Below are positions 18,842 through 38,121 of a stretch of 64,000 nt of DNA, in pieces. The notes below the pieces were generated by a model. That model was not told where the DNA came from, did no database searches, and saw only the letters and a list, made by a program, of their open reading frames with translations. The stretch's first letter is position 1. Each line of letters starts with the position of its first letter. The stretch is from Phormidesmis sp. (GTDB lineage: Bacteria; Cyanobacteriota; Cyanobacteriia; Leptolyngbyales; Leptolyngbyaceae): positions 1,408,001 through 1,472,000 of the forward strand of contig CBDFJR010000002.1 of NCBI GenBank assembly GCA_965248535.1. The letters are read 5' to 3'. Both the position numbers and the translations under genes were made by a program.

Positions 18842-18961
18842 ATTCTCTTTTAATCATCTTTCAAGAGAGGAGCCACAAAGCTCCTCTTTTTGTATTCTAG
18901 AAATCAACCTAGATTTCCAGACTGCATCTGTGGTAATCTAGGAGCTGCATTGAATAGGTTT

Positions 18962-19034
18962 GGCTCAGTAGCTCAGTGGTTAGAGCAGGGGACTCATAAG
19001 CCCAAGGTCGCAGGTTCAAATCCCGCTTGAGCCA
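18962..19034 (+). tRNA. tRNA with CAT anticodon, most likely elongator tRNA-Met; integration target
   Basis: GGCTCAG/TTGAGCC acceptor stem, AGCTCAGTGGTTAGAGC D arm, CTCATAA loop, GGTTCAAATCC T arm; G1-C72 paired so not initiator; Ile2 identity not excluded. Confidence 0.92.
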
Positions 19035-19041
19035 TTTTTTA
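18990..19041 (+). repeat. attL core (3' part of tRNA)
   Basis: ggactcataagcccaaggtcgcaggttcaaatcccgcttgagccatttttta identical to 32373-32424; imperfect similarity continues ~60 bp through the terminator hairpin. Confidence 0.95.
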
Positions 19042-19169
19042 GGATGGAATAAAATATCCCGTAGCCCCGTATTTCAAGGGGTTACGGGATTTTCGCGTTT
19101 GTGCAATACCCTCTAACACCCTTTAATACCCTCTAATACCTGCCTACTTTTTAGGCAAACTTTAGGCAC

Positions 19170-20300: not shown

Positions 20301-20466
20301 GGTGCCATCGGTAGGTCGGTCTAGCAGCTTGCGGGCTGGCAATATTTCGCCAATGGATTTTCTCTTTTAGGAGTCCTTCACGCCGAAGTTTCCAGAGATG
20401 CTCGTCAGTGAAACCCAATTCATTACAAACCGTGCCTGTAGGCACCCAATCAGAGGTTCTGCTCAT
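20254..20466 (-). CDS. Probable excisionase / small winged-helix DNA-binding protein
   Basis: 70 aa, convergent on the integrase; WV.T...LG....L.K.R..G.LK...HWR...RPTYRWH pattern. Confidence 0.7.
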   Translation of the reverse strand: MSRTSDWVPTGTVCNELGFTDEHLWKLRREGLLKEKIHWRNIASPQAARPTYRWHLKRCEEALEIPPEMR

Positions 20467-20728
20467 CACACCCCCCAAATAAACTGGGCTGCACGTATTT
20501 TTTAACGTACACCTGTCTCTCAAGTTGCTGACATCGCTGGTTTAGGGCAGTGGTCAGGATGTCAAATTCTCTCGATAGCAGAGAGTAGTGGGATTTTTTC
20601 CACTTCTTGTAGAGCGGCATATCTTGCCAGTCGCCCTCTGGCTCCCAATCTGTCAGCACCCCGATGGCGATTTTGAGCTTAGAAATCCGATCGCTGTGAT
20701 CGATGATGTCGTCAATGAAGTTGCTCAT
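20450..20728 (-). CDS. Hypothetical protein (element early operon)
   Basis: ORF tightly coupled between rep and xis. Confidence 0.6.
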   Translation of the reverse strand: MSNFIDDIIDHSDRISKLKIAIGVLTDWEPEGDWQDMPLYKKWKKSHYSLLSREFDILTTALNQRCQQLERQVYVKKYVQPSLFGGCDEQNL

Positions 20729-21666
20729 CTATCGTTCCTCCAAGATTTGGTTGCCGTCGATCAAGAAGCGCCACTGGTTATCGGTAATCAGATTCCTCAC
20801 TAAATCGGCCCAGCCGGCCGCGAGCAGCGCTTGCAGTCGCTCTAAAACAAAGGTGCGATCGCCGAACTCGATCGCTCTTTGGCAACTTTCGCGAATTTCA
20901 AATAAATCGGGTGCCGCCGCCGCCACCGGAACCTGACCCGTCTCAACCTGACGATTTTGGCTGATCAGAAAGTCTTGCTGATTGGCTTCTAACGGTGCCT
21001 GCTTTTTGACCCACTGCTCTAAGAAGGTGGGCCGGACTGGGAGCTGCTCAGATTTCCAGATCAACCAGTCTCGATAGGCGGGTTCGATCTCCTGTTTTGC
21101 GTCAGCATTTTTGTCTCTCTCTCGATCATCTCTGTAGAGAGAGAGAAAGATTGTAAAGACTGTAGAGATAGAGGCGATCCAGACCCGTTATGGGATGCGG
21201 GTTCTGGCGGTTTTTTGTCGCAAATTTGCGAATTTTTGTCGCATAAGTGCGAATCTGAGTCGCAAAACTGCGAATCTGAGTCGCAAATTTGCGAATTTTT
21301 GTCGCACTTATGCGAATCTGAGTCGCAAATTTGCGACAATTCCTCCAAAAAAACATATTCTGGAACTCCCTCTGAGTTTGACATAGGAACGTTTAGTTCC
21401 ATTTCGTCGGGGGCGCTAATTTCGAGGCGATGCTGCTCAGAAAGTTTTCCGATCGCTCGGTAATAACTGGCTTTGTTGATGCCCAGTTGATCGCAAACCC
21501 AACTGATGCTGAGGCGCACCACTTTGCCAAGTTTGCGGGCACTGGCTACCAGGTAGAAAATTGCGCCCCTGGTCGTGAGCAACCCGGCTTTATAGTCTCG
21601 AATGACATCTTTAACGGTCAGTCTATGGTGGGGTTGGGTTTTGGGTGTTTTTACGCTAGGATTCAT
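20729..21666 (-). CDS. Putative replication initiator (N-terminal HTH, internal iterons), split by a frameshift in the (AG)n tract near 21115-21124
   Basis: HTH-like VCDQLGINKASYYRAIGKL; removing one AG joins 21061..21666 to 20729..21064 via RDKNADAKQEIEPAYRDWLIWKSEQLP. Confidence 0.65.
21218..21336. repeat. Six palindromic TCGCA-N4-TGCGA boxes at exact 21-bp spacing (putative iteron origin)
   Basis: Boxes start at 21218, 21239, 21260, 21281, 21302, 21323. Confidence 0.85.
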
Positions 21667-21759
21667 GGGGATGTCAAGGTTTTATGGACAAGAGAAAGAA
21701 AAGGCAACCTTTAGCCTTAAAAAGGGGCAGTCCGTAACTAGCGGTCTGCCCTTTGGCTT

Positions 21760-21972
21760 TTAAATGTGATTGACGATCGTTCTAATCAGGGCTTTCTTTT
21801 GCTCAGGTGACATGGTTGCGATCTGAGGTTCTAGCGGCGCTGGCAGATGATCGACGTGAAAGCCCAGGGGCTTGTGGGCAGAGGGATAGCTGATCTGCTC
21901 AGTCAGGGCGTGAATGAGTTGGACTTTTTGGTCTGAGGTGAGCAGCAGAAGTTGCGCCGTGAGTTGGGTCAT
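21760..21972 (-). CDS. Hypothetical protein
   Basis: 70-aa ORF with internal repeat (LTSDQKVQLI / MSPEQKKALI). Confidence 0.6.
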   Translation of the reverse strand: MTQLTAQLLLLTSDQKVQLIHALTEQISYPSAHKPLGFHVDHLPAPLEPQIATMSPEQKKALIRTIVNHI

Positions 21973-22015
21973 GGGTTAACCTTTGCTTAGATGAATTTGA
22001 TCAATGAACAGGCGA

Positions 22016-22049
22016 TCGCACTCCCCAGACGGCAGCGCGATCGCTTTTT
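22016..22049. repeat. 34-bp direct repeat, left of TA cassette
   Basis: tcgcactccccagacggcagcgcgatcgcttttt identical at 22784-22817. Confidence 0.92.
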
Positions 22050-22084
22050 GTTGGGATAATGGATTGAGTAAAAGAGGTTGAGTG

Positions 22085-22249
22085 ATGTTCAACATTGAGC
22101 TTGAGCAGGAAGATGACCAACGGTGGATCGGTGAGGTTACAGACTTACCGGGTGTGCTGGCTTATGGGCAGACGAAGGAAGAGGCGATCGCCAATGCAAA
22201 AGCGTTAGCGCTGCGGGTGCTGGCTGACCGCATTGAGCATGGTGAGTGA
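22085..22249 (+). CDS. hicB: Short HicB-family antitoxin (54 aa, not in ORF track)
   Basis: Translated by hand: MFNIELEQEDDQRWIGEVTDLPGVLAYGQTKEEAIANAKALALRVLADRIEHGE. Confidence 0.8.
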   Translation: MFNIELEQEDDQRWIGEVTDLPGVLAYGQTKEEAIANAKALALRVLADRIEHGE

Positions 22250-22251
22250 CG

Positions 22252-22485
22252 ATGCCTAAGAAGGTTAGGGAGTTGAAAAAACTCGTGAAGAAAGCGGGGT
22301 ATGTCTACCAGCCGGATCGAGGGAAGGGTAGTCATAGTTTTTGGAAACATCCCCTGTTGCCGGGTGAGGCGTTGTGTATCCCTGGTAAGGATGGAGATGA
22401 CGCACCGAGATATCTTGAGAAAGAGGTTGATCGGGTGCTGATGAAGCTGAAGGAGTTAGAGAGCCAACAGGAGGATGAGGTATGA
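22252..22485 (+). CDS. hicA: HicA-family mRNA interferase toxin
   Basis: MPKKVRELK..AGY...RGKGSH..WKHP. Confidence 0.88.
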   Translation: MPKKVRELKKLVKKAGYVYQPDRGKGSHSFWKHPLLPGEALCIPGKDGDDAPRYLEKEVDRVLMKLKELESQQEDEV

Positions 22486-22712
22486 AATCGCGCTACAGCA
22501 TGGTCATCCAGTGGTCGGATGAGGATGATCTCTACCTGGTTCATTTGCCTGAGTTTCCGTGGCAGCAGTTTGTAACGCACGGTAAGACCTATGAAGAGGC
22601 GGCTAAAAACGGGCGTGAGGTGTTGGAAACGTTTATCGAGATGTTTCAGGAGGAAGGAAAGCCTCTGCCTGAGCCGATCGCTTACCCTGAAAAACCTCTG
22701 AAAGTTGCTTAG
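22482..22712 (+). CDS. hicB: HicB-family antitoxin
   Basis: YSMVIQWSDED..YLVHLPEF...THGKTYEEA; overlaps hicA stop (ATGA). Confidence 0.9.
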   Translation: MKSRYSMVIQWSDEDDLYLVHLPEFPWQQFVTHGKTYEEAAKNGREVLETFIEMFQEEGKPLPEPIAYPEKPLKVA

Positions 22713-22783
22713 TGGCATAGAAATCTCCGATCGGTAAAAAACAAAAGTCATTTCGGCGCACACGTCCCGTGCAGCGAGGCTGT

Positions 22784-22817
22784 TCGCACTCCCCAGACGG
22801 CAGCGCGATCGCTTTTT
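22784..22817. repeat. 34-bp direct repeat, right of TA cassette
   Basis: Identical to 22016-22049. Confidence 0.92.
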
Positions 22818-22821
22818 TGTG

Positions 22822-23007
22822 TCAGTAGGGCATTTGGTCTTCTTCTTCTGACTCTTCAACGCAGAGGTCAAAGATTTGCTGTAGCTCGTCTAGCAGGGCT
22901 TCTTGTCGATCGGGCGGGAGTTGCTCAAAGAGAGTGACGATTCTGTCTTTGAGTTCGTCGTGGTCTTGATGGTCTGCTTCTAAAACGGTCATTTCGTCTT
23001 GGGTCAT
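22822..23007 (-). CDS. Small acidic hypothetical protein
   Basis: 61-aa ORF with GGAGG upstream on the minus strand. Confidence 0.6.
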   Translation of the reverse strand: MTQDEMTVLEADHQDHDELKDRIVTLFEQLPPDRQEALLDELQQIFDLCVEESEEEDQMPY

Positions 23008-23151
23008 CGATAAGCCTCCGGGTGGGAGAGGGAATCACGGTAAGGGGTCTGAGGGGTTGGGTTCCTCAGATGGGTGATTCCGGTGGATCATTGGTTTTAG
23101 CCACACGGGGAGGACGGCAAATCTGCCCCGTGTGGATGTTCAGTACAGAAC

Positions 23152-23190
23152 AGGCGATTCATCTAGGTGAATCATCTAGACGAATCGCCT
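23152..23190. promoter_or_regulatory. Inverted-repeat operator candidate at the divergence point of the element
   Basis: aggcgattc...gaatcgcct arms with nested gattcatctaggtgaatc, 13 bp upstream of the XRE gene. Confidence 0.55.
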
Positions 23191-23203
23191 ATTTCAAGAT
23201 ACT

Positions 23204-23473
23204 ATGGATTCAGAAAAAAACAACCCGTGGGAGGAAGGCGTGTCCCCTTTAAAAACAATCCGCCAGTTGCTCAAACTGACTCAAAGGCAGTTTGCAGAAA
23301 GGATTGGCTCAGACCAAAACGTTGTGAGCCGATGGGAAAGGGGTGTCTATGAGGCGACTTTTACCATCGCGCAAGTCAAGGCTATGGATGAGTTGCTAAA
23401 AGAGGCATCCCTTACCTGGCAAGACATTCCTAACAGTCTTGCTCCCTACTCAAACGAAAGCGCTGAGGCGTGA
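23204..23473 (+). CDS. XRE/Cro-family HTH regulator
   Basis: LKTIRQLLKLTQRQFAERIGSDQNVVSRWERG. Confidence 0.9.
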   Translation: MDSEKNNPWEEGVSPLKTIRQLLKLTQRQFAERIGSDQNVVSRWERGVYEATFTIAQVKAMDELLKEASLTWQDIPNSLAPYSNESAEA

Positions 23474-23602
23474 CCACAATCACACTTCAGCGCTCACTTA
23501 AGAAAGGAGGTCATTAACCCCACACTATTTAGATCAAATTCTTAGCCGGGGCACAGCTTCCAACTTCACCCCGGCTCTACCCCAAACAGAGGCACTTACA
23601 TT

Positions 23603-24016
23603 ATGAATCTTTCATCACACAGACGATCGCTCGGTGCGATCGTCGCTGCAACGATCACGATTGCGGCACCCGCAGCGATCGCCATGACCTACGACGATTT
23701 CGGAGACCTTTTCAAGAATGCCGTCAACGGGTTAGCGGGCGATCGACCGCCTGAGACTCGGTACCCAGATGTCCCCAACAACGCTCCCCTGACTCACGGC
23801 GCTAAACCCTACAGCAGTTTTGGCTCACTCACCGCCGGGCAAGTCGATGCGCTGCATAACCTAGCCTGGCCACAATCCACTAAAGCGATGCGTTCCCGGT
23901 TCGGCGCTCCCTCCTATATCAGTGCCGACCTGGATTGGTTTGAGCAACCCGACGGGGAGTTTATCGCTGTCCGTTACCAGGGTGCTCAAGCTGTCGGTGT
24001 GGAGGCGGGAAAGTAG
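23603..24016 (+). CDS. Hypothetical secreted protein
   Basis: Signal-peptide-like N-terminus RRSLGAIVAATITIAAPAAIA. Confidence 0.65.
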   Translation: MNLSSHRRSLGAIVAATITIAAPAAIAMTYDDFGDLFKNAVNGLAGDRPPETRYPDVPNNAPLTHGAKPYSSFGSLTAGQVDALHNLAWPQSTKAMRSRFGAPSYISADLDWFEQPDGEFIAVRYQGAQAVGVEAGK

Positions 24017-24018
24017 TC

Positions 24019-24276
24019 ATGCCTAGAGAAACATGGATTATGGAATCTGATGACAAAGACGGAGACTTTAGCGACACTGCATCTCACCACACTTACCAGG
24101 TGGGCAACATCACAGATGCGGTTGAAGCTGAATCACGGGCGCTTGAAACAGGTGGTGATCCGGTTTGGATGGATGCCAAGATCGATGGCTCTGAGTATGA
24201 AATCGAGCAGAATCAGAAATTCACGATCGCTGAGTTTGAGCTTGATTCTCAAGGTGTTCAGTATCAACAGAAGTGA
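24019..24276 (+). CDS. Acidic hypothetical protein
   Basis: Starts 2 bp after previous stop. Confidence 0.6.
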   Translation: MPRETWIMESDDKDGDFSDTASHHTYQVGNITDAVEAESRALETGGDPVWMDAKIDGSEYEIEQNQKFTIAEFELDSQGVQYQQK

Positions 24277-24285
24277 GGTTAAACA

Positions 24286-24588
24286 ATGCCAGGTTTTTTT
24301 GAGCGAGTATTTTTTGGCAATCAAGCCGATGATGATGAAAGCTTTACTGACACCAATTCAGGGATTCAGTACACGAATCACAGCAAGCAGGAAACGCTTG
24401 ATCATGCGGCGCGATTTGATGAGTACGAGGCCGGCTCTGATGTCCGGTCTAACGATGGAAGGCAGGCTTCAGAGGTGCGTGATTCGACAAGGTTTAACAC
24501 TGCTATCTTTGAAGTGGATGACCAGAAGTTTTACTTCCCAACTGAACTCGATCCAGGCAACCCTAGAAATCCAGCAAACAAGCCATGA
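24286..24588 (+). CDS. Acidic hypothetical protein
   Basis: GAGG RBS; tight operon spacing. Confidence 0.6.
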   Translation: MPGFFERVFFGNQADDDESFTDTNSGIQYTNHSKQETLDHAARFDEYEAGSDVRSNDGRQASEVRDSTRFNTAIFEVDDQKFYFPTELDPGNPRNPANKP

Positions 24589-24737
24589 ACAGCCTAACCC
24601 GACTAACAGAAGTCATGCAGACTGAGACGACCCTTACCGCGATCGCAAAGAAAGCAAGGGTTCCGGTTTCGATGGTGCAGTTTCATCTCAAAAAGACGCT
24701 CCCATCTGGTAAGCGACTGATTGTAGTGAACGAATAG
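24585..24737 (+). CDS. Small HTH protein (50 aa, not in ORF track)
   Basis: ATGA overlap; MNSLTRLTEVMQTETTLTAIAKKARVPVSMVQFHLKK... resembles a helix-turn-helix. Confidence 0.55.
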   Translation: MNSLTRLTEVMQTETTLTAIAKKARVPVSMVQFHLKKTLPSGKRLIVVNE

Positions 24738-24742
24738 ACAGC

Positions 24743-24809
24743 GATTGTCCTTTTCTCACAACTTGGGAACGCACAAAAAGCCCCTCTTAGACCGATCTGA
24801 GAGGGGCTT
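24743..24809. repeat. Hairpin-containing intergenic repeat, copy 1 of 3
   Basis: gattgtccttttctcacaacttgggaac...aagcccctcttag-accgat-ctgagaggggctt. Confidence 0.85.
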
Positions 24810-24841
24810 ATGATTAAAAATATCGCTGTTTCTAGACCATT

Positions 24842-25261
24842 ATGACCGACACACCCGATCAACCGACTAACTTGAGCGATCGTATTGAATCCTTATTAGG
24901 TCAATCGCAAGAGTCATTCAACGCACGAATGGATCGAATTGCCGAAAACCTTGAAACAAGTTTTGAGATACAGCAACGTCAGCACGAAAACACCCTATCA
25001 GAACTGCGAGAACTCAAATCAGTTGCTCAAGAGCAATCTCGCACCGCACATCAGCAACAAGAAACCGTCCGTCAATTTGTGGGCATCGTCGGTGAACTGA
25101 CCCGCACCATTGCAGAAATGTCACGCACCGTTAGCGACTCAGTAGAGTCATCCAGGAACGCCGCACAAGCAGCAGAAACCGCCTCTGTTTTAGCTCAAAC
25201 CAATCAGAACGCCATCAGAGACTTAATTGAAGAGATGCGAGAACGGAGAAATGGAGGGTAG
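24842..25261 (+). CDS. Coiled-coil hypothetical protein (cassette 1)
   Basis: 139 aa, Q/E/A/S-rich helical sequence, bounded by repeat copies 1 and 2. Confidence 0.7.
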   Translation: MTDTPDQPTNLSDRIESLLGQSQESFNARMDRIAENLETSFEIQQRQHENTLSELRELKSVAQEQSRTAHQQQETVRQFVGIVGELTRTIAEMSRTVSDSVESSRNAAQAAETASVLAQTNQNAIRDLIEEMRERRNGG

Positions 25262-25328
25262 ATCGTCCTTTCTTCACAACTTGGGAACCTTAAAAAAGCC
25301 CCTATCAGATCTTTCTGGTAGGGGCTTT
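25261..25328. repeat. Hairpin-containing intergenic repeat, copy 2 of 3
   Basis: gatcgtcctttcttcacaacttgggaac...aagcccctatcag...ctggtaggggcttt. Confidence 0.85.
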
Positions 25329-25349
25329 AACACGCTTAAGGAGACAATC

Positions 25350-25562
25350 ATGATCGACGAAATCAAAATTGATAACTCAGTCATCCCTTTCATGCCTGCT
25401 AAATATCACTTGGGGCAGAAAGTCACGGTTGATCGCACCGTTGGCTACATCATCGGCATCCAGCGCGAAAAGTATTCATGGAGCTACCTGGTAGTCGAGG
25501 GTGAACCACCTACCAGCGATAGTGATGAAAACTGGCAATCAGAAAGCGAACTTGCAGCGTAG
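25350..25562 (+). CDS. Small beta-rich (SH3-like) hypothetical protein (cassette 2)
   Basis: AAGGAG RBS before ATG 25350; PAKYHLGQKV...GYIIGI...WSYLV. Confidence 0.65.
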   Translation: MIDEIKIDNSVIPFMPAKYHLGQKVTVDRTVGYIIGIQREKYSWSYLVVEGEPPTSDSDENWQSESELAA

Positions 25563-25614
25563 ATCGCTTCATTCTCACAAAAGCCCCTCTTAGATCGGTC
25601 TAAGAGGGGCTTTT
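25562..25614. repeat. Hairpin-containing intergenic repeat, copy 3 of 3 (shortened)
   Basis: gatcgcttcattctcacaaaagcccctcttag-atcggt-ctaagaggggctttt. Confidence 0.85.
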
Positions 25615-25697
25615 GTCTGGCAAGTTATCGCCATTAACCCGGTATAAACCGTTACTAGTGGGAATGTTTAGAGATGAACAGTCAGCCCTGAATCACT

Positions 25698-25994
25698 ATG
25701 TCAGCTTTACCCACTAGACCCAGCGCGATCGCCACCACCGAACAGGAAATCATGCGCCTGATGATGTATTACCGCGATGTCAACCCGCGCACGACTTGGC
25801 TAGAAGAATCTAACTTCACCATGCCCGTGGCCTCATGGGATTGGAAACCCAACCCAGAAGGACGGATTCTCTTTGTGGCCCGCGCCATTATCGAAGTCGA
25901 TTCAGCCCTTCTCAGCAGTGGGGTCAAACCGTGGATGAGTGCTAAAGAGGTTCCCGGCTCCGCTACGTTGACGGGCAACGCCTACACCACCTGA
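25698..25994 (+). CDS. Hypothetical protein, first gene of putative structural module
   Basis: 98-aa ORF, 4 bp from the next gene. Confidence 0.65.
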   Translation: MSALPTRPSAIATTEQEIMRLMMYYRDVNPRTTWLEESNFTMPVASWDWKPNPEGRILFVARAIIEVDSALLSSGVKPWMSAKEVPGSATLTGNAYTT

Positions 25995-25998
25995 TGCA

Positions 25999-26697
25999 AT
26001 GAACTGGACACAGTTAGGCAAAAGCATCACGATCGCCTCACAGCGCAAGTGGACTGATACGACGGCTAAGACTTGGTTTAAGTTTGATTTCAACCCGGCA
26101 ACCGAGGGATTTTTAGAAGTCACTCAAGGGGATGGAAATCTGACGATCGGGGAACCGATCAACATTTCAACGGATAGAAGCCCGGTGATTTTATCCCTAC
26201 CAGTGCCGCTATTAGTCAGTCCACAAAGCAGAAAACTCGCGCTTAAATCGCTCCAAAAACTCAAGATTAGCATCTCTACTTTAGATGTTGAACCTATCAC
26301 AATCAACCCAGATTTAAGCGCAGTTGTTCAGGCAATTCAAACTCAACAATCGCAGATCGACCTCATCTCAAACCAACTCACAACCTTACTCACCATGCCA
26401 TTATTTCAATCCAATCCCACCGTTCAGCCGCCCAAGAATTCCGTCTCTGCAACGATCGCTAGCTCAACCACAAGCGTATCGCTGTTAGCAGCAAACGATA
26501 ATCGCAAAGGTGCCACTATCTATAATCGCAGCACTGCCACACTGTTTATCGACTTTGACAGCGCTGCAACAATTCTAGATTGTGCTGTGGCTATTCCTCC
26601 AATGGGTTACTACGAAGTGCCGTTTGGAATGCTCACCGCAATCTCAGGTATCTGGGATGCAGTCAACGGTAGCGCATATGTTAGAGAGCTAACCTAA
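25999..26697 (+). CDS. Putative virion protein with C-terminal beta domain (paralogue of 31025..31705)
   Basis: STTSVSLLAANDNRKGATIYNRS...ISGIWD C-terminal domain; TAATG overlap with next gene. Confidence 0.6.
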   Translation: MNWTQLGKSITIASQRKWTDTTAKTWFKFDFNPATEGFLEVTQGDGNLTIGEPINISTDRSPVILSLPVPLLVSPQSRKLALKSLQKLKISISTLDVEPITINPDLSAVVQAIQTQQSQIDLISNQLTTLLTMPLFQSNPTVQPPKNSVSATIASSTTSVSLLAANDNRKGATIYNRSTATLFIDFDSAATILDCAVAIPPMGYYEVPFGMLTAISGIWDAVNGSAYVRELT

Positions 26698-27308
26698 TGC
26701 CGTTGTATGCCTACGATAAACATGACACTTACACTCAGGCTATCAACTGGGAGACACCCGGTGAGATAGGAAAAACAACACCTAACACGGGAAAGTTTAC
26801 ACGGGTTAGTGTTGCCAATACTAACAATGAGATTAGTAGATTTAGTTCGTCTGCTCAATACTATGCACGGCTAGCAGTTGAACACTCTGGGAGTCCGGGT
26901 ATAGCGCTCTATCATGATTCAACTTGGGCATGGTCTATCTTCTCAGATAGCGTCCTATTGAGCAATGGACAGACTAATGGATATAGCTACGCCATTGTTA
27001 ACGAGCGAACCTCTAAAATGGTGTTTGCTATTGATGGCAATGTGCAAAAGGTCAATGTGTTTGGAGGGCTGAGAGTTAGCAAGGAAACACCTAACCTCAC
27101 CTTCACTTCACCCCCCTCACCCGGCGAAGGCAACCTAGCCGTCGAGGGGTTTGTTCAGTTGGGCAGGTTCACCCTCTCTACTCTGCCTAATCCCGCTAGC
27201 TGTGAGGGTGCGATCGTCTATCTCTCTAACGAGTCTGGAGGCAAGACGATCGCCTTCTCTGATGGTGCGAACTGGAGACGAGTTAGAGACAACGTTGTTG
27301 TTACTTAA
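26697..27308 (+). CDS. Putative fibre/spike-like protein
   Basis: PGEIGKTTPNTGKFT and C-terminal LP......GAIVYLSNESGG...AFSDGANWRR motifs like those of phage fibre proteins. Confidence 0.6.
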   Translation: MPLYAYDKHDTYTQAINWETPGEIGKTTPNTGKFTRVSVANTNNEISRFSSSAQYYARLAVEHSGSPGIALYHDSTWAWSIFSDSVLLSNGQTNGYSYAIVNERTSKMVFAIDGNVQKVNVFGGLRVSKETPNLTFTSPPSPGEGNLAVEGFVQLGRFTLSTLPNPASCEGAIVYLSNESGGKTIAFSDGANWRRVRDNVVVT

Positions 27309-27329
27309 ACGATAAGGGAATCGCTACAG

Positions 27330-29825
27330 ATGGCTAATTATCGCTTTGGTGACGGATTTCATTACGAAAAACCCGCCTACGAACCTACACCCTCGCAAAT
27401 TAATGCAGCACAGGAAAGTGCTAGACGAAGCGCTGAAGCAAGAGCACGAGTTCAAGCAGCACAAGAACAGACTGCACGAGCAAGAGCGAAAGCTCTATCA
27501 GATCAAATAGAAGCCGAGCGACCGCAGAGAGAAGCACAGCAGAGACGGAATGCTGAACTTCGGCAACAAGCACAACAACGGTCTGATGAGTATCGAGCGG
27601 GATTAGAAAGTATCAAACAACGGCATAGAGAACAAGATGCTAAGTCAAAAGAAGTTTATGATGCCCTGAGAAAATACCAACGAGAAGAGTACGTTAATCG
27701 AACCGCTCCTAAACTCGATATTGCCCCTGGTAGACCACCCGGCGAAAATGATTTTGATAGCTCCGCAAAATTAAGAAATAGTACGCTACCAGCGCCCGCA
27801 CCACTTCCCATCAATCCCACAAAAAATGGGGAAATGGTACACGTTCCTAACGCTTCAAAATCACCATTAGCAAGAACTCAAGGCCCGATCGGGCCTCAAC
27901 TCCCAAAAGCATCATTACCCAGCGCAACTAAAAGCGGATTTAAATTTAGCGGTGTTGGCATGAGCGGCGGCGGCTTAGGTTTTGATATATCGGAAGCAGC
28001 GGCAACGTCCATCGCCCTCGATTTTCTGAATTCAAACGGTAGACCTAACTTTCCTGGTTACAATCCAGGCAATTCTGACATTGAAAGGTTAGGCAGAGGT
28101 ATCAGTGACGCTCTGAGGAATTTAGGCAACTCTCTAAGTCACCCTAGCGATAGATTATCTGACCTTCTAAACTTATTCCCCAACCCCTATAGAAAGCACC
28201 CTAGAACCGACCCCCAAAATGAGGACGGTAGACCTAAACCTGTTCGCTATGTCTCTGAGTGGAGAGGGTTAAAGTTCTACTCACCCAACAACAAGCGAGT
28301 AGTGCAGATCGCCGCACCCCACGGCGAATATTCGCTAGGGGAGATCAAGCAAGATAACCCCGGCGGGAACTACGTTTTCTCCAGTCCTGAAAAAAACACC
28401 TATGCCATCATCTACTGGGATAACCTGCAAGGGAATAACACCGATGGTTATCAGGTCATCAGGGGTAGCAGCACTTGCGAGCCTGACACCATCCAACGCG
28501 ATCCGACATATTCTCCTCCCTCCTACGACTTGCCCGCGCTGCTACCACCCGGCACCACCCCTGACCCCGGCTACCCTCCCATCTTCACAGACGAAGACTT
28601 CAAGCCCCAACGGGATTTGAATAACGATCGGGCCCGGCAAGACGAGCAAGACAGACAAGACGCACCCGATCCAGAACAAGAGCGGCAAGACGCACGCAGC
28701 CCACAGCCCGCCCCCGACCCGTGGGAAAATCCATTTCCAGCCCCAGACGGAACGCCGCAGCCACAGCCTTACCCCTTCCCGCTCGATCCACCCTCCCCAG
28801 ACCCCACTAACCCGACCGACCCCTACCCCGACACAACCCTAGGCGATCGCCTGAGAGAGAAAGTAGATCGCATCAAAGAAAAGCTCAACGAGAGATTCCC
28901 GGCTCCGACCGATGGGCCGCAGGTCACAATCAACGGTGATCCGGTGCCCAGTCCCACTTCTCCCGCTCCGCTACCAGACACCTCACTGTCTCCGTTGCCA
29001 GACACCCGCACTAAATCGCCTCCATCGCCTACAACGACCAAACCGCCCACAGAGACTCGGCTAGACACAGAGACCGGGCTGACTCCCACAAAAGACCCTG
29101 ACCCAAAACCCGACACCCCGACACCCGAAAAGTGTAAAGACCCCTGTATGCAAGGCTTGCACGATAAAACGGATGCTAACTCTAAGCAGACTGAAATTAA
29201 GGTCAAGGTGTTTAAATCGTGCTCTAAAGCGGGTGCTGACGGCACGACAAAAAATGAGATTGACTTTGAAGAGAAGCTGGTGAAGGTGCTAGCGAGTGAA
29301 GCGGATGCCTATAGGTTGCTCTACAGTCGGATTTTTGCCCTAGAGTCTGAGCAGTGTGGCGATGTGAAAGCGATCGCCTCCGTCCCTGAGTGGTGGCAAG
29401 CTCGGCGCGGGGCAGACATCCCTCAGCTTGTGATTATTTTTGCCGAGCAGTTTTCATCAGGCAAGCTAGGCGGCTCGCGATGGAATCTATCCATCCCTCA
29501 TTACAACAAGGGCAAGGGGTCTAGACCCGCGATTCCCTCTTATAACAAGGGCAACTGGTTCGGCACCCTACGGCTAACGGATGGGTCAAAGCTTGGGGTC
29601 AATGCCGCCACATCAACCGAATGTAAACGCATCTTAAATCGGTTGAAAATTCACATTCCGGTCGAGTTCCGCACCAAAAAAGGCAAGGCGATTAAACCGC
29701 GCATTGTGGAAGACCCCACGGCTGATCTCAAAGAATGCAAAGTGACACCCGTTAGAGCCGATTACTACTCTAAGGGTCAAGCCAACATGAGGCCTGACTG
29801 GTCAATTAATCTCCGCAGCAAATAG
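27330..29825 (+). CDS. Large 831-aa protein: N-terminal coiled coil, Pro-rich linker, basic C-terminal domain
   Basis: Long ORF with clear compositional domains; function unknown. Confidence 0.75.
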   Translation: MANYRFGDGFHYEKPAYEPTPSQINAAQESARRSAEARARVQAAQEQTARARAKALSDQIEAERPQREAQQRRNAELRQQAQQRSDEYRAGLESIKQRHREQDAKSKEVYDALRKYQREEYVNRTAPKLDIAPGRPPGENDFDSSAKLRNSTLPAPAPLPINPTKNGEMVHVPNASKSPLARTQGPIGPQLPKASLPSATKSGFKFSGVGMSGGGLGFDISEAAATSIALDFLNSNGRPNFPGYNPGNSDIERLGRGISDALRNLGNSLSHPSDRLSDLLNLFPNPYRKHPRTDPQNEDGRPKPVRYVSEWRGLKFYSPNNKRVVQIAAPHGEYSLGEIKQDNPGGNYVFSSPEKNTYAIIYWDNLQGNNTDGYQVIRGSSTCEPDTIQRDPTYSPPSYDLPALLPPGTTPDPGYPPIFTDEDFKPQRDLNNDRARQDEQDRQDAPDPEQERQDARSPQPAPDPWENPFPAPDGTPQPQPYPFPLDPPSPDPTNPTDPYPDTTLGDRLREKVDRIKEKLNERFPAPTDGPQVTINGDPVPSPTSPAPLPDTSLSPLPDTRTKSPPSPTTTKPPTETRLDTETGLTPTKDPDPKPDTPTPEKCKDPCMQGLHDKTDANSKQTEIKVKVFKSCSKAGADGTTKNEIDFEEKLVKVLASEADAYRLLYSRIFALESEQCGDVKAIASVPEWWQARRGADIPQLVIIFAEQFSSGKLGGSRWNLSIPHYNKGKGSRPAIPSYNKGNWFGTLRLTDGSKLGVNAATSTECKRILNRLKIHIPVEFRTKKGKAIKPRIVEDPTADLKECKVTPVRADYYSKGQANMRPDWSINLRSK

Positions 29826-29998
29826 TCAGTAATTTTAATGAAGCCCACGATCGGATCAATTTGCCTCAGCAACACAGGAAACCTCCGTAATTATGTCTTC
29901 GCTCTTAGAGCGAAGAAAATAAACCGGGGTTACCCTTGGCACTTCTGAGTATCGGTTGCGTAGGGTTGTGAGTAGCAAAAACTACCTCTCATTCACCT

Positions 29999-30503
29999 AT
30001 GTCTGCAATCAGCGTCACTGGCTCTAGCCTCAAATCAACCACCCTCCCAGGTGCCCTTCTCGAAGCCTGCTCTATTTCTCGATTCTGCTGAGAAAGCTCG
30101 GAACGGCGCAAACCCCGGAATCACTCCTAAAAACAACGTCAGCATCACATTTTCGAGTGACGACGGCACCGCTAACATCGCGGCTACCTTACCCGTTGAT
30201 GTTTCACAGCTATCTGATGGTGGCGTGAAATATCTGCCTAAAGACTATCTGGGTGGCACCTATGCGGCCTTTACTGCTGGTGGCGATGTCACGGCTACTT
30301 CTCGCATGGCGGCGGTTGCTCAAATTGCTCAGATTTTGAGTGCGGCTGAGAAAGCGATTCAACCCTTAGAAGATCAGCCTAATTTCATCCAGGTTGAATC
30401 CTCTAGCGAAAATGGCACCATCACCGTGACGGCTGCTCTTCCGATCGTGCAAACCATCAGTTCTAGCGGACTGGTGACGATCGCCGCGCTCGACTACCTC
30501 TAA
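29999..30503 (+). CDS. ~167-aa protein made of two ~80-aa tandem repeats; candidate major virion protein; frameshift near 30068
   Basis: ATG 29999 gives MSAISVTGSSLKSTTLPGALLEA, and a one-base shift joins it to ALFLDSAEKA...; both repeats end in DYL. Confidence 0.65.
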
Positions 30504-30534
30504 ATCAGGAAGAAACCTATAGGAGGTATAAATC

Positions 30535-30999
30535 ATGGCTGAAACAGCAGCAGCAAAGAAGCATAGAGCTAGAGGTCCGAGACAGCTTTTTGGATGGGGA
30601 ACGATCACGGTGACTCGTGAGAAGAAGAAGGTTAAGCACAACCCCTTTTCAACGATTCCTAAAAGCACGATGGATGCCTGCGGCTTGAAGATTGCCAAAG
30701 CCCCTGCGAGTGCAGGAGTGAAAACCAAGAAAGACAAAAAGGGGCGCTTGAGACTGGTTAACAGCCAAAATCTGACCAACGTCTCCTCTCGCTACATCAT
30801 GGTTTATGCAGGTGAAACCGACAACAAACAAGGGGAAGTCTGGCATCGGATCACCCTACCAACCGGGATTTCACTCGCTAGAGGAGCGTCTATTCTCACG
30901 GGTGGAGGCTCTAAAATCCAAAAGGTGAAATTCCCGAACGGTAAAGCCGTCCAGATTGGCAAGAAAATCACCCCGAAAGCGGCTCCTAAGAAGAAGTAA
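30535..30999 (+). CDS. Highly basic protein, candidate nucleic-acid-binding core protein
   Basis: AGGAGG RBS; K/R-rich throughout, ends PKAAPKKK. Confidence 0.75.
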   Translation: MAETAAAKKHRARGPRQLFGWGTITVTREKKKVKHNPFSTIPKSTMDACGLKIAKAPASAGVKTKKDKKGRLRLVNSQNLTNVSSRYIMVYAGETDNKQGEVWHRITLPTGISLARGASILTGGGSKIQKVKFPNGKAVQIGKKITPKAAPKKK

Positions 31000-31024
31000 C
31001 GATCATCGCTGAGTAGCCCAATCA

Positions 31025-31705
31025 ATGCTTGACCCAACTGAATGGCGGCTACGCGGCACCCGGCTCTATGGGATTAGGGGCGATCGGTCTCCCCTAATCC
31101 TCTGCCGTGACCTCACTTCTCAACTCGTGCGGGTTGATGTAGTTTTCAAAAATCTCAAATCGACTTGGTATAAGGCGGGAACGATTCAGCAGGTGTCGGA
31201 TGGGATTAGAGCGGCTGAGAAGACCGTGCCGTTTGAGTCTCGCTACTATTTGTTTCCAACGGATTTAGCACCCACCTATTCGCTTTATTGGCAGCCCGTG
31301 CCATGGCTACCAGTGGGGCGCTTACAGGTGTGGGAGTATATCGGATTGATTCCTGATGCACTCCTTCATCAACTCGCTAACTTCTCTGGAGAGTCTCAAA
31401 TGCCTGTCATTACAAATCCCGTCGCTCGTGCAGCCACGTCACGAGACACTGACAAAGGGGTCAGCACTACGTCTGTTGTGTTGATGCCTGCTGAGTTACG
31501 CCGCGTGGGGGGCACGATCATCAATCGATCTACCATTGCCTCGCTGTCGATCAATTTCGGTGAAACAGCAACGTCTGCTGACTATCACCGCCTCACCCCT
31601 GGCGGCTCGATCGATATTCCTATCTCTTGGGTGGGAGCGATCGCCGGAATCTGGGATAAAGCAGATCCCCTCGGTAAAGCCGTCATGACCGAGCTACTGG
31701 GCTGA
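31025..31705 (+). CDS. Putative virion protein with C-terminal beta domain (paralogue of 25999..26697)
   Basis: STTSVVLMPAELRRVGGTIINRS...IAGIWD. Confidence 0.6.
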   Translation: MLDPTEWRLRGTRLYGIRGDRSPLILCRDLTSQLVRVDVVFKNLKSTWYKAGTIQQVSDGIRAAEKTVPFESRYYLFPTDLAPTYSLYWQPVPWLPVGRLQVWEYIGLIPDALLHQLANFSGESQMPVITNPVARAATSRDTDKGVSTTSVVLMPAELRRVGGTIINRSTIASLSINFGETATSADYHRLTPGGSIDIPISWVGAIAGIWDKADPLGKAVMTELLG

Positions 31706-31742
31706 AAGCCCTTGAGTTAAATCAGTTCTCCTGAAGCACCAG

Positions 31743-31768
31743 GCGCGGGGTCAGTCCCGCGCTTTTTT
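31743..31768 (+). terminator. Intrinsic terminator closing the structural module
   Basis: gcgcggg-gtcagt-cccgcgc followed by T6. Confidence 0.8.
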
Positions 31769-31786
31769 GAATCATCTAAGGTCACC

Positions 31787-32083
31787 GTGAATAAAAATGA
31801 GTCGATTCTGTTTACGATCACCGTGCTCTCTTTTGGGGCTGGTCTGTTGCATCGTGTCTGGCTGATGTCCATGGCGGTTTCAGGAATGCGCCATAATCTG
31901 GAAAAACAAGACATCCGGTTGGAAAATCTCAACGATCTACATGAGGCCGGGTTTAATGGGTTTAAAGAAAGGATCGAACACTTCACTAACCGGACTCGCG
32001 GCGAGATTGGGGAGTTGAACAAACGGCTAGAGGATGTCGAGTCCTATCTGACAAAATCAACCGAGTTTATAAGACGACGATGA
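31787..32083 (+). CDS. Small membrane protein with coiled coil (holin-like position)
   Basis: N-terminal hydrophobic ILFTITVLSFGAGLL, charged C-terminus. Confidence 0.55.
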   Translation: MNKNESILFTITVLSFGAGLLHRVWLMSMAVSGMRHNLEKQDIRLENLNDLHEAGFNGFKERIEHFTNRTRGEIGELNKRLEDVESYLTKSTEFIRRR

Positions 32084-32229
32084 CGAGCAACCTGAATTTA
32101 TCGCTAGTTCAAACCACTAAGGAATTTTTGCGGCTCGTGCTGGCACAGCTACAAATGGATAAATTAGAGACAGCCGTAGCCCTAGAAGAAACGGCGGCAG
32201 AAATTCGAGCCAAAAAAGCGGCAGAGTAG
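32080..32229 (+). CDS. Small helical protein (49 aa, not in ORF track)
   Basis: ATGA overlap; MTSNLNLSLVQTTKEFLRLVLAQLQMDKLETAVALEETAAEIRAKKAAE. Confidence 0.5.
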   Translation: MTSNLNLSLVQTTKEFLRLVLAQLQMDKLETAVALEETAAEIRAKKAAE

Positions 32230-32372
32230 GTCAGTGCTAACGAGCATTAGACTAGTTTTATCTCTGTTCAGATAAATAGAATGAAGTGCTTAAATTAGTC
32301 ACACTTTAGTCAAGTTTTATAACTCAATTACTGAAAGCCAAACGCATCAAAGCTTTCAGCAGTCAGGTTTAT

Positions 32373-32424
32373 GGACTCATAAGCCCAAGGTCGCAGGTTC
32401 AAATCCCGCTTGAGCCATTTTTTA
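32373..32424 (+). repeat. attR core (duplicated tRNA 3' part)
   Basis: Identical to 18990-19041. Confidence 0.95.
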
Positions 32425-32774
32425 AGATGAAACAGAATATCCTGTAGCCCATATTTCAAAGGGGTTACGGGATTTTCGCGTTTGATGAACTCGCGCTACA
32501 GCATGATCATCCAGCGATCGCATGAGGGTCATTAAATGTCCTAAAAATCTCTCGTTAGAAATAACCGGGATTGAGCGATCGATTCCAGCCAGACAAACAA
32601 ACCGCTTCGCACAGGACGGGTTGGCGAGTTTGTTGAGAGAATGGAGTCAATTTCAAGGCGTGTGATCTTTAAAAGATTGAAAAATTTAGCCACAGCAGCA
32701 AGATTGAGATAGGCTGAGAATGACTGATTCCAAGGACTCTCATCAGGTGAAACCCCTAGTTCTGGCATTCAATC

Positions 32775-35582: not shown

Positions 35583-36323
35583 ATGCCCGATTCTGAAGAA
35601 ACTTTGCCCCGCGATCGTCAAGCCCTAGTCGAAAAGCTCCTCGACTCGCTTCAGGCAACGCCCAACCCGCTCGAATATCTGGGCAAAGCACCCGATCGGG
35701 CAGAACTGTTTGATCCCTATCAGATGGTCAGTGAATGGATTGCACTCCGCCACGAAGTTAAACAGCAGAACAAATTATCACAAGCAGCCCACGCATCTTT
35801 GCAACAAGCTTTAGAAACTGAGCGATTGCAAAATGCACAGCTTCAACAACGGCTAGAAGAACTTTCAAACACAAAATCGGACAATCAAAGCTATCACTCA
35901 GAGCAGAAAAGATTATTCCAAGATTTATTAAAAATGATGGATGCTCTCGATCAAGCTTGTGAATATGGACGATCGCAGATTTCAGCCTCTATGCCAACGC
36001 CGCCTGCATCGACAAATTTTTTAGAAAAACTCTTTTCTAGACCCAAGGCTGACTCGCGTGATTTCAACAAAGGGTTGCTCAGTCATCAGCAGGGGGTGGA
36101 GGTGATTCGGAGATCGCTGCTCGATTTGCTCAAGCAAAAACAAGTCGTGCCGATCGTGACCCTAGGAAAGCCCTTTGATCCAGCCTATATGTATGCGATC
36201 GGGCGACAAGAAAGCGACACTGCCCCTGAAAACACCGTCATTCAAGAGATTGTGCGGGGCTATTGGTGGCAAGATCAGGTCTTGAGAGAAGCACAAGTAA
36301 TGGTAGCTGTGAGCAAGGAATAA
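35583..36323 (+). CDS. grpE: GrpE-like nucleotide exchange factor
   Basis: Coiled coil, then GKPFDP.YMYAI...VIQEIVRGY....VLREAQVMVA. Confidence 0.85.
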   Translation: MPDSEETLPRDRQALVEKLLDSLQATPNPLEYLGKAPDRAELFDPYQMVSEWIALRHEVKQQNKLSQAAHASLQQALETERLQNAQLQQRLEELSNTKSDNQSYHSEQKRLFQDLLKMMDALDQACEYGRSQISASMPTPPASTNFLEKLFSRPKADSRDFNKGLLSHQQGVEVIRRSLLDLLKQKQVVPIVTLGKPFDPAYMYAIGRQESDTAPENTVIQEIVRGYWWQDQVLREAQVMVAVSKE

Positions 36324-36328
36324 CCACA

Positions 36329-38121
36329 ATGGGCAAAACCGTTGGCATTGATTTAGGAACCACCAATTCTGAAGTGGCGATCGTCGAAAACGGACAAGCG
36401 AGAATCTTAGCCGGAACAGACGGAGACTTACTGCTGCCCTCTTGCGTCGGATTTAGCGACACTGGCAAGCTGCTGGTCGGGCGCGAGGCTTTGCGTCAAT
36501 ATGCGGCAGCCCCCGATCGCACCGTCAAATCGATCAAACGCTGGATGGGCACAGACCACAAAACCACGCTGCAAATCTCGGCGGAGGAAACTTATGAGTA
36601 TTTGCCCCACGAAATCTCTGCCATTCTGCTCCGCGCTCTCAAACAGCGAGCAGAAGTGGCTTTAGGGGCAGATGTGACTCAGGCGGTGATCACGGTTCCG
36701 GCCTATTTCACCGATGCTCAACGTCAAGCTACTAAGCTGGCAGGCGAAATTGCGGGCTTAGAGGTGCTGCAAATTATCAACGAGCCGACCGCTGCCGCTC
36801 TCGCCTATGACGTGCGATCGGAGGAGACCGAACGAGTTTTAGTCTACGATCTAGGGGGCGGCACCTTTGATGTGTCAGTGGTCGAAATCACGGGCGATGT
36901 CACAGAAGTGCTGGCTAGCCACGGCAACAATCGTCTGGGCGGCGATGACTTTGATCGGCTGCTGCAACTGCACCTGATCGACCGATTTCGGCAGGCTCAC
37001 GGGGTCGAGGTGCCCCAAGATGCCATTCCACAAGCTCGACTGCTGCGGGCGGCAGAGCAGGTCAAAATTGACCTTAGCGCCCATGCCTTTACAACCGTCA
37101 GAGAGGCGTTTTTGAGCAGCCAAGGTCAGACTGCTTTGCACTTGGAAACAGAGATTGCCCGCACTGATTTTGAAGCGCTGATCCGTCCACTGATTGATGA
37201 GACGTTGGACGCAATTGATCGGGCCCTTTCGGATGCCAAGCTGGAGGCTGAAGCCCTCGATCGGGTGATTCTGGTCGGCGGCTCGACGCGCATTCCTCTC
37301 GTGCAGCAGATGATTGAAGAACATCTAGAACAAGCGCCTACAGATGGCGTGCAGCCCGATCTGTGTGTAGCGTTGGGGGCAGCCATTCAAGCTGGGGTGC
37401 GGGTGGGAGAAGATGTCGATGCAATTTTGGTGGATGTCAGCCCTCACTCGTTAGGCGTTGCCGCCGCCATCACTACGCCCATGGGCATGATGCCAGGGTT
37501 TTTTAGCGTAATTATTCCTCGCAACAGTGTGGTTCCGGTGTCGCGTTCTCAGGTTTACTCAACGGCATCTGATCGCCAAACCTCGGTTGAGATCGAAGTG
37601 TTTCAGGGCGAGAATACGATCGCGAAGAAAACGTTCCCCTTGGGGCTTTTATGGTGGAAGGCTTGCCGCCCCAGCCCGCCGGAAGTCTTGAAGTCGAGGT
37701 GCATTTTGACTTTGACATCAACGGCATTCTCACTGTCACCGCCACCGAAAAAGGTAAGGGGCAGCAAAATAGCTTAGTCGTGAACAATGCTGCGGTGCAT
37801 CGGCTTTCTAGTCACGAGCTAAATCAGGCTAGAGAAGATCTAGACGCATTGTTTAAAAGTGATGAAACTATCGTCACTCAAGCGCGAGAGGTCACAGATT
37901 TTGAAGCGATCGCTGACTCGATTTCACCAGATTTAGCAGATCTTCTGGGTCGTGCCCAAAAAACTCTAACAACGCTAGACGAAGACCAAACCGAAGAATT
38001 AAAAACGCTGATTGAGCAACTTCAAACCGCGATCGTCAACGATTATGATATTGCTATCCCCAATCTTCAAGAAGAGCTAGAAGATTTTCTCTACTACATC
38101 AGCACTAATTCGGATTCATAA
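36329..38121 (+). CDS. dnaK: Hsp70/DnaK paralogue; frameshift near 37623
   Basis: GIDLGTTNS, TVPAYF, NEPTAAA, DLGGGTFD, LVGGSTRIP; continues in ORF 37651..38121 (FDFDINGILTV). Confidence 0.9.

Follow-up and report, generated by a model that had tools for sequence, protein, structure and literature searches.

Two adjacent genes in the 64,000-nt window analysed here (Phormidesmis sp., contig CBDFJR010000002.1, positions 1,408,001 to 1,472,000; all coordinates below are those of the window), one encoding an acidic, internally duplicated protein (the repeat protein) and the other a strongly basic protein, appear from sequence comparison to be the conserved core of an undescribed small family of integrating virus-like elements in filamentous cyanobacteria. 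The pair is read here, with a probability of about 0.38, as a shell protein and a DNA-coating protein at the core of the particle module of these undescribed temperate elements, a reading that plausibly fits the context better than its three rivals and that draws on gene position, conservation, domain fusions and the lack of alternatives. An earlier note on this DNA had proposed a novel capsid and genome-condensing pair; of that proposal, the mobile, virus-like setting and the place at the conserved centre of a non-replicative module stand, whereas the partner is no simple polycation and the first gene of the pair is broken. The genes and the signal between them are as follows.

29999-30503, plus strand: repeat protein gene, 167 amino acids (aa) if intact, with a 1-nt insertion at about 30066-30072 (open reading frame (ORF) reading, relatives, DNA alignment)
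30521-30526, plus strand: AGGAGG ribosome-binding site of the basic gene, 8 nt before its ATG
30535-30999, plus strand: basic protein, 154 aa, isoelectric point (pI) 10.9, 22% lysine plus arginine (ORF; profile search; model with a predicted local distance difference test (pLDDT) score of 80.2)

A conserved pair in small cyanobacterial elements

Of 90 genomes in the host's order, 12 contain relatives of the repeat protein, as do 15 of 401 genomes sampled across the phylum; these 15 come from five families, and cultured Nostoc, Anabaena, Tolypothrix and Fischerella strains are among the carriers. A species collection yielded five loci, all cyanobacterial. The related elements measure 10-13 kb and lie in Leptolyngbya-like and Nostoc-like cyanobacteria. 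They differ in their genes for replication and integration but retain a core in which the large protein comes first, followed by the repeat protein, the basic protein and a fibre-like protein. At 16 of the 21 places examined, the gene next to the repeat gene on its upstream side encodes the C-terminal domain of the large protein (exceptions: loci L029, L030, L034, L041 and L042), and on the other side the repeat gene is followed by a 125-154-aa protein of pI >= 10 in 14 of 17 loci, the exceptions being L029, with a neighbour of 199 aa and pI 9.9, and L028 and L030, which have no basic neighbour. A basic neighbour also lies downstream in L038, L045 and L046, and in each of the order's seven genomes that give a strong two-repeat match, the basic gene lies within about 60 nt downstream. 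Judged by mean column identity (71%, against 42% for the basic protein and 35% for the C-terminal domain of the large protein), the repeat protein appears to be the best conserved protein of the module.

Locus L021, a 19,975-nt metagenome contig of which 18,465 nt were examined, carries element genes only, without host genes, at a 10,084-nt period. It comprises two head-to-tail copies of a 10.1-kb relative, with 7,001 nt at 99.6% identity and a diverged part of ~3 kb after the repeat stretch that carries 100-aa and 811-aa genes, together with a weak Prim-Pol match and no integrase. The contig could be a circular or concatemeric episome, a tandem pair, or an assembly merging two variants; six short contigs searched for terminal overlaps had none.

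Duplication, half-size forms and fusions of the repeat protein

In an 82-sequence alignment, the two halves of the repeat protein (residues 1-84 and 85-167) match each other by hhalign at 98.5% (E 3.2e-15, 77 columns, 30% identity) and have in common the motifs AEKA, N-x-V/I, G-T, LP and DYL, which bears out the two motif-bearing repeats that the earlier note had described. In L031 (hhalign 94.4%, E 8.5e-8) and likewise in L028, the place of the repeat gene is taken by one for a half-size, one-repeat protein. The family is acidic, with a median pI of 4.13 over 91 relatives, and P0001, a 95% identical relative of the window protein, contains neither Cys nor Trp.

Longer versions are found in Nostoc-type cyanobacteria, where 76 relatives of 306-433 aa carry an N-terminal extension of ~170 aa ahead of the whole repeat domain. 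Among the 72 long forms with an anchor motif, the residue at the start point of the short proteins is Met (69) or Val (3), and an internal start yielding both a long and a short product is possible. The first ~60 residues of the extension look, by our own reading, like an excisionase-type winged helix; Pfam searches of eight long forms gave this reading no support, the family HTH_17 being recorded, at E 6.7e-5 and below its curated cut-off, solely for a separate 72-aa ORF in the same place in L031. Leptolyngbya-type elements have no tblastn counterpart of the extension. In the fusion protein P0284, the N-terminal extension and the first repeat are followed by a collagen-like stretch (PF01391, E 2e-13) and then a C-terminal domain, and the latter together with the collagen-like repeats matches PHROG tail-fibre families, in matches that are largely repeat-driven; the arrangement suggests that the repeat sits within a fibre-carrying structure.

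Reading frame of the window copy

The frame opened by the ATG at 29999 closes after 30 codons (TGA 30089-30091), and the remainder of the protein lies in the frame of ORF 30051-30503. Alignment with the DNA of six homologous loci places an extra single base in the window at about 30066-30072 (GAAGCCTGCT against GAAG-CTGCT), and dropping one C restores LEAALFLD, as in P0001. A protein search with ORF 30051-30503 (E <= 0.01, 210 candidates) returned 91 relatives, nearly all of 166-170 aa, and the ten inspected in full length start MS... and cross the position of the break in one frame. Because the window carries an extra base and its relatives read straight through, the repair of a single indel is correct, as had been supposed before the six-locus alignment and the intact relatives of ~167 aa were available; and since the homologous loci lack the extra base, the break is private to the window copy and not a conserved recoding site. 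Programmed frameshifting was ruled out because the inspected homologues keep a single open frame.

The window copy may be defective, or the indel may be an error in the assembly. Contigs from three metagenome runs over 18800-32700 contain several strain variants, and no indel at 30066-30072 is among the 12 listed of their 28 indel rows. Elsewhere in the window, a DnaK-like gene (36263-38121) is split into two overlapping frames, corresponding to HSP70 profile positions 2-451 and 454-592, with the frame switch near 37640-37660 amid short homopolymers; this second split gene hints at assembly indels.

The basic protein

The lysine- and arginine-rich neighbour and its AGGAGG signal were correctly described in the earlier note. 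A Shine-Dalgarno-like motif precedes the basic gene in 14 of 15 loci and the repeat gene in only 4 of 11. Profile searching of 1.84 billion representatives returned 114 relatives, and the basic proteins of the related loci have pI values of 10-12. None of 92 family members matches a DNA-binding Pfam family at E <= 0.01, HU/IHF and histone-like families having been tested. The core of the protein aligns with the C-terminal part of 301-aa chromosomal cyanobacterial proteins (hhalign 91.6%, E 8e-7, 89 columns) that open with a NucS_C nuclease domain (PF01939, E 8e-8). The likeness to such NucS-type proteins thus covers ~89 residues of the basic core; the window protein differs in having no nuclease domain, and the common part carries no Pfam name. 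This NucS-type fusion supports a predicted nucleic-acid-binding role for the basic core. The fusion copies lie at L043:4411-5313 and L044:5116-6021, each adjoining a ~250-aa ORF that is nearly identical between the two genomes.

Structure models and family searches

The model of P0001, built from 82 sequences, reaches a pLDDT of 94.5 and a predicted template modelling score (pTM) of 0.88, and comprises in each repeat a helix of 17-22 residues followed by three strands, the middle one of 14 residues; DSSP assigns two helices of 17-22 residues, one of 4 residues and six strands. The model of the basic protein (92 sequences; pLDDT 80.2, pTM 0.67) has twelve strands and two helices, and by this model the protein is probably a folded alpha/beta protein, not disordered or a simple polycation.

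Neither protein matches a known family in Pfam, PHROGs or NCBIfam. ESM Atlas returned a best feature score of 0.88 for the repeat protein and no usable match for the basic protein, and sequence-profile searches of PDB with the repeat, basic and large proteins produced chance-level rows, none below E 0.44 for the basic protein. A PDB profile match of the repeat protein to a tandem cyanovirin (E 0.003) was dropped because the repeat model is helical.

The statement that the repeat protein resembles no HK97, jelly-roll or inovirus coat is supported by its sequence and its model. Neither the window ORF nor P0001 matches an HK97 capsid profile, with no Pfam, PHROG or NCBIfam family at E <= 0.01, and HK97 chains are absent from the Foldseek and VIA rows for P0001, an absence that does not exclude the fold. 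Neither the repeat model nor the basic model is an eight-stranded beta-sandwich of jelly-roll type, and an inovirus coat would have ~50 residues in a single long hydrophobic helix, where the repeat protein has 167 aa and six strands. The bacterial microcompartment (BMC) shell domain PF00936 is likewise unmatched by the repeat protein.

The 13.4-kb element of the window

The pair belongs to an element of 13.4 kb bracketed by direct repeats spaced 13383 nt apart. As in a temperate element, the repeats, one of them in a tRNA gene, enclose an integrase gene. Its boundaries and its integration, replication and regulatory genes are listed below.

18961-19035, plus strand: tRNA-Met (CAT), the integration target (ARAGORN; Rfam tRNA 60.8 bits)
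18990-19101, unstranded: attL attachment site, a 112-nt direct repeat with an exact 52-nt core at 18990-19041 (repeat search, 90% identity; pairwise alignment)
32373-32484, unstranded: attR attachment site, repeating the 3' part of the tRNA (repeat search, pairwise alignment)
19170-20300, plus strand: tyrosine integrase (phrog_1 integrase, E 1.3e-10; no Pfam match at E <= 0.01)
21061-21666, minus strand: 201-aa protein with six 21-bp iterons (21196-21357) within its gene (repeat search; no family match)
22082-22712, plus strand: HicB-like / HicA / HicB-like cassette (PF07927, E 2.1e-10; PF15919, E 1e-4 and 7.2e-6)
23204-23473, plus strand: XRE-family helix-turn-helix regulator (PF01381 HTH_3, E 7e-11)

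The 201-aa protein and its iterons are a putative replication initiator and origin. From 23603 to 32229 a plus-strand operon follows, whose products have no useful match in Pfam, PHROGs or NCBIfam. A terminase, a portal and a known capsid were sought by Pfam and PHROG scans of 24 + 13 window proteins and none was found, which is not the make-up of a tailed phage; a Walker A motif is absent from every real ORF of the element, and no P-loop ATPase was found. Only two small element proteins have a hydrophobic segment, and the element includes a 137-aa protein with a hydrophobic, signal-like N-terminal segment.

A proposed particle module and its rivals

Under the shell and DNA-coating reading, the pair would lie at the heart of the late (particle) module in temperate virus-like elements of 10-13 kb. 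The 167-aa acidic protein would be a single-chain pseudo-dimer, a helix and three strands twice over, and the principal unit from which the protein lattice or sheath of the particle is built, with sister elements building the same pseudo-dimer unit from two copies of the half-size protein. The basic protein would be a folded nucleic-acid-binding protein that coats and neutralises the element DNA, protein and DNA co-assembling without a packaging ATPase, and attachment would fall to the fibre-like proteins and the large upstream protein. Whether this amounts to a new kind of bacterial DNA virus, with an alpha/beta pseudo-dimer particle of unsolved fold co-assembled with the basic protein without a packaging ATPase, in which the Nostoc-type long form, made from the same gene as the short one, would pick the genome through a DNA-recognition domain, is doubtful.

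A number of observations weigh against a shell and its DNA-coating partner. Relatives are missing from the viral and plasmid collections searched: pattern scans of IMG/VR returned none, tblastn of 50,697 phage records gave no match for the repeat or basic protein or for the C-terminal domain of the large one, and tblastn of a plasmid collection gave none for the repeat protein (P0001 and P0220 were among the tblastn queries). The 112 spacers in four CRISPR arrays of the host have only chance matches of 13-19 nt to the element loci, which speaks against a viral nature. The comparison with capsid folds that had been suggested earlier was run with Foldseek on the P0001 model (PDB, BFVD) and returned nothing at E <= 1e-3, while VIA-align against 48,161 chains reached a best Z of 4.1, its matches ending by about residue 130 and being mostly to helical proteins; the basic model gave a best Foldseek E of 0.26 and a best VIA Z of 3.8, with no capsid or nucleocapsid likeness, absence from either list neither excluding a fold nor proving a new one. 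No lysis enzyme was recognised in the element. The codon bias of the repeat gene is unremarkable (effective number of codons 56.6), with no sign of high expression, and the gene is broken in the window. Identities of the repeat and basic proteins to those of the window are discordant (57% and 81-84% in L025 and L027, 71% and 43% in L016), which argues against a tightly co-adapted contact between the two, and the DNA-binding-looking N-terminal extension of the long forms would equally fit a regulator. A further candidate, L045:2256-2750 as an L,D-transpeptidase-like lysis enzyme, was dropped for want of Pfam support.

An element of 10-13 kb that encodes an integrase or a Prim-Pol-like protein but lacks a capsid, portal and terminase could also be a satellite, or borrow the shell of another phage, the repeat protein then being an accessory of the virion (a fibre adaptor or hub, or a redirector of the helper's capsid) and not its main shell. 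The several fibre-like proteins around the pair and the P0284 fusion, which sets the repeat at the base of a collagen-like fibre, are consistent with such a role; yet a conserved module of at least eight genes is, in our own judgement, many for a satellite, its best conserved gene is that of the repeat protein, and no helper phage turned up, no search having been aimed at one. This arrangement is regarded as rather unlikely. The opposite charges of the two families (median pI 4.13 over the 91 repeat relatives, 10-12 for the basic proteins) would also suit a non-structural pair, in which the basic protein binds the element DNA and the acidic one works with it in replication, partition, regulation or counter-defence, acting for instance as a DNA mimic or chaperone. 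The NucS-type nuclease fusion of the basic core and the excisionase-like winged helix read by us at the start of the Nostoc-type long forms (HTH_17 reaching a match, below its cut-off, in L031 only) point the same way, but the repeat gene lies among fibre-like genes and not among replicative or regulatory ones, stays linked to the large protein and fibre genes in elements whose replication and integration modules differ, and in P0284 would make an odd fusion of a regulator with a collagen-like fibre, all of which leaves such a function unlikely.

The lack of relatives in viral collections, the 137-aa protein, read as secreted from its signal-like hydrophobic N-terminus, and the collagen-like and proline-rich large proteins would be expected of a non-viral, integrative, plasmid-like element whose module builds a cell-surface fibre or adhesin benefiting the host or the element. 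By our own reading of the sequences, however, the repeat and basic proteins both lack a signal peptide, a protein of pI 11 akin to a nuclease-associated domain suits DNA better than a surface fibre, and no secretion or transfer genes were recognised in Pfam and PHROG scans; a surface fibre is the least credited of these possibilities and seems very improbable.

Significance

Bacterial-virus capsid proteins fall into very few structural classes, on which virus-finding programs depend. If the repeat protein is a shell protein, it would represent a new capsid architecture and reveal a gap in virus detection; otherwise, the two genes still make up a widespread module with two confidently modelled folds for which no solved-structure match was found. 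The element family has phage-type fibre domains but lacks every known hallmark gene, and searches of IMG/VR did not recover it. Its culturable carriers with intact copies, among them Nostoc sp. NIES-3756, Anabaena sp. PCC 7108, Tolypothrix sp. NIES-4075 and Fischerella sp. NIES-4106, make the question of a shell testable.

Comparison with known systems

Several known systems offer partial parallels. The coat protein of single-stranded RNA phages of the MS2 type is a small alpha/beta protein that serves as a building block in dimeric form, and single-chain dimers of it have been engineered; the 167-aa form, set against the half-size forms of L031 and L028, would similarly replace two chains by a tandem fusion, and differs in the order of helix and strands, in the absence of such coats from the Foldseek and VIA lists, and in belonging to a DNA genome that integrates. 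Microcompartment shell units (PF00936) are small alpha/beta proteins that occur duplicated in BMC-T and as a single domain in BMC-H, which parallels the single and duplicated versions of one small alpha/beta unit seen here; the repeat protein differs in having no PF00936 or fold match and in its setting in a mobile element instead of a metabolic operon. The Acholeplasma phage L2 (Plasmaviridae) is an enveloped phage of wall-less hosts with an integrating double-stranded DNA genome of ~12 kb, and resembles the window element in that it encodes a large protein and basic proteins but nothing recognisable as a capsid or packaging gene; it differs in its envelope, the window element having only two small proteins with a hydrophobic segment. 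The p6 protein of phi29 is a small, basic, DNA-binding protein of virions or phage nucleoids; the basic protein of the window is likewise encoded in a structural region and could neutralise DNA, but is larger and folded, its model showing 4+2+2+2 strands and two helices, and the VIA Z of 3.0 between the two is within noise.

Varidnaviria capsid proteins have one or two jelly-roll barrels (PMC8328091). The likeness to the elements lies in the presence of one unit per chain or two fused, and in small temperate tailless elements of ~10-15 kb; the difference lies in the repeat model, which has two long helices and six strands and no eight-stranded sandwich, and in the absence of any packaging ATPase found in the element. 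At the level of listings and abstracts, the literature yielded nothing on the element family or on six of its locus tags.

Large and fibre-like proteins of the module

The genes flanking the pair within the operon encode large, fibre-like and small proteins.

25698-25994, plus strand: conserved 98-aa module protein (38-90% identical copies in L016, L017, L019, L021 and L031; no family match)
25999-26697, plus strand: 232-aa fibre-like protein with a C-terminal domain in common with ORF 31025-31705 (match to a ctKR88 ORF; tblastn)
26697-27308, plus strand: 203-aa protein with a phage fibre-type C-terminal domain (Erwinia phage UCB24 match)
27330-29825, plus strand: 831-aa large protein with a coiled-coil N-terminus, proline-rich linkers and a conserved 230-aa C-terminal domain
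31025-31705, plus strand: 226-aa fibre-like protein, a C-terminal paralogue of ORF 25999-26697 (tblastn synteny)
31787-32229, plus strand: 98-aa protein (one hydrophobic segment, then a coiled coil), then a 49-aa protein (homologues in L021, L027 and L031)

Residues 166-231 of ORF 25999-26697 match, at 39% identity, a 144-aa ORF in Podoviridae sp. ctKR88 that sits right before a 598-aa repeat-rich ORF, read by us as a probable fibre, in a stretch including a capsid gene and several sugar-transferase genes. ORFs 25999-26697 and 31025-31705 match the same places in related loci by tblastn. ORF 26697-27308 ends in a stretch, residues 147-203, that matches the C-terminus of a 773-aa ORF in Erwinia phage UCB24 with 39% identity (E 7e-5). 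The 831-aa protein has no family match and no PDB sequence match. Between elements, the length of the large protein varies widely (811-890 aa), and in the Nostoc-type L038:10602-13211 runs of collagen-like triplets and other tandem repeats stand ahead of the conserved C-terminal domain; the L038 protein matches PHROG tail-fibre families through its collagen-like repeats, in a largely repeat-driven way. The counterpart of 31787-32229 in L038 has a weak match to an Rz-like spanin (E 0.0036).

Expression signals around the pair

The repeat gene is preceded by an intergenic gap of 173 nt (29826-29998), and signals lie within this gap and downstream of the three genes.

29896-29916, plus strand: conserved stem-loop of 9 bp with loop TTA (CTTCGnnn TTA nnnCGAAG), 83 nt before the start codon
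29936-29966, plus strand: promoter-like TTGGCA, 19 nt, TAGGGT (own reading of the locus alignment)
31741-31764, plus strand: intrinsic terminator-like hairpin of 10 pairs, 7 of them G-C, with a T run (terminator scan; downstream of ORF 31025-31705)

The stem-loop is kept in all nine aligned loci, with compensatory changes in six of eight predicted pairs, and since it has no T run it is perhaps a processing, stability or recognition element and not a terminator. A like pair of hexamers with an 18-nt spacer occurs in L017, L018 and L021 among the nine aligned loci. A promoter in the gap, as the earlier note had considered possible, therefore finds a candidate in the alignment, whereas a consensus scan of the plus strand of the gap with spacers of 16-18 nt reports none. 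Together, the promoter-like hexamers and the strong terminator bracket the predicted three-gene unit.

Further repeats in and around the element

A G+C-rich palindrome, AAAAGCCCCTC...GAGGGGCTTTT, is present in three copies (24776-24812, 25294-25330 and 25579-25615) between small genes of the element, and the copies look like bidirectional terminators or a small repeated element. The HicB/HicA/HicB cassette is flanked by an exact 34-nt direct repeat (22016-22049 and 22784-22817), as if inserted as a unit, and 48 nt just past attR (32485-32532) are 85% identical to the start of the second hicB-like gene (22482-22529); this stretch is possibly what remains of a related element that once occupied the site. 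Outside the element, the window contains three CRISPR-like arrays with repeats of 33 and 27 nt, at about 52069-52623, 59611-59688 and 60607-61019, and a CRISPR array of 91 repeats lies on another contig of the host genome.

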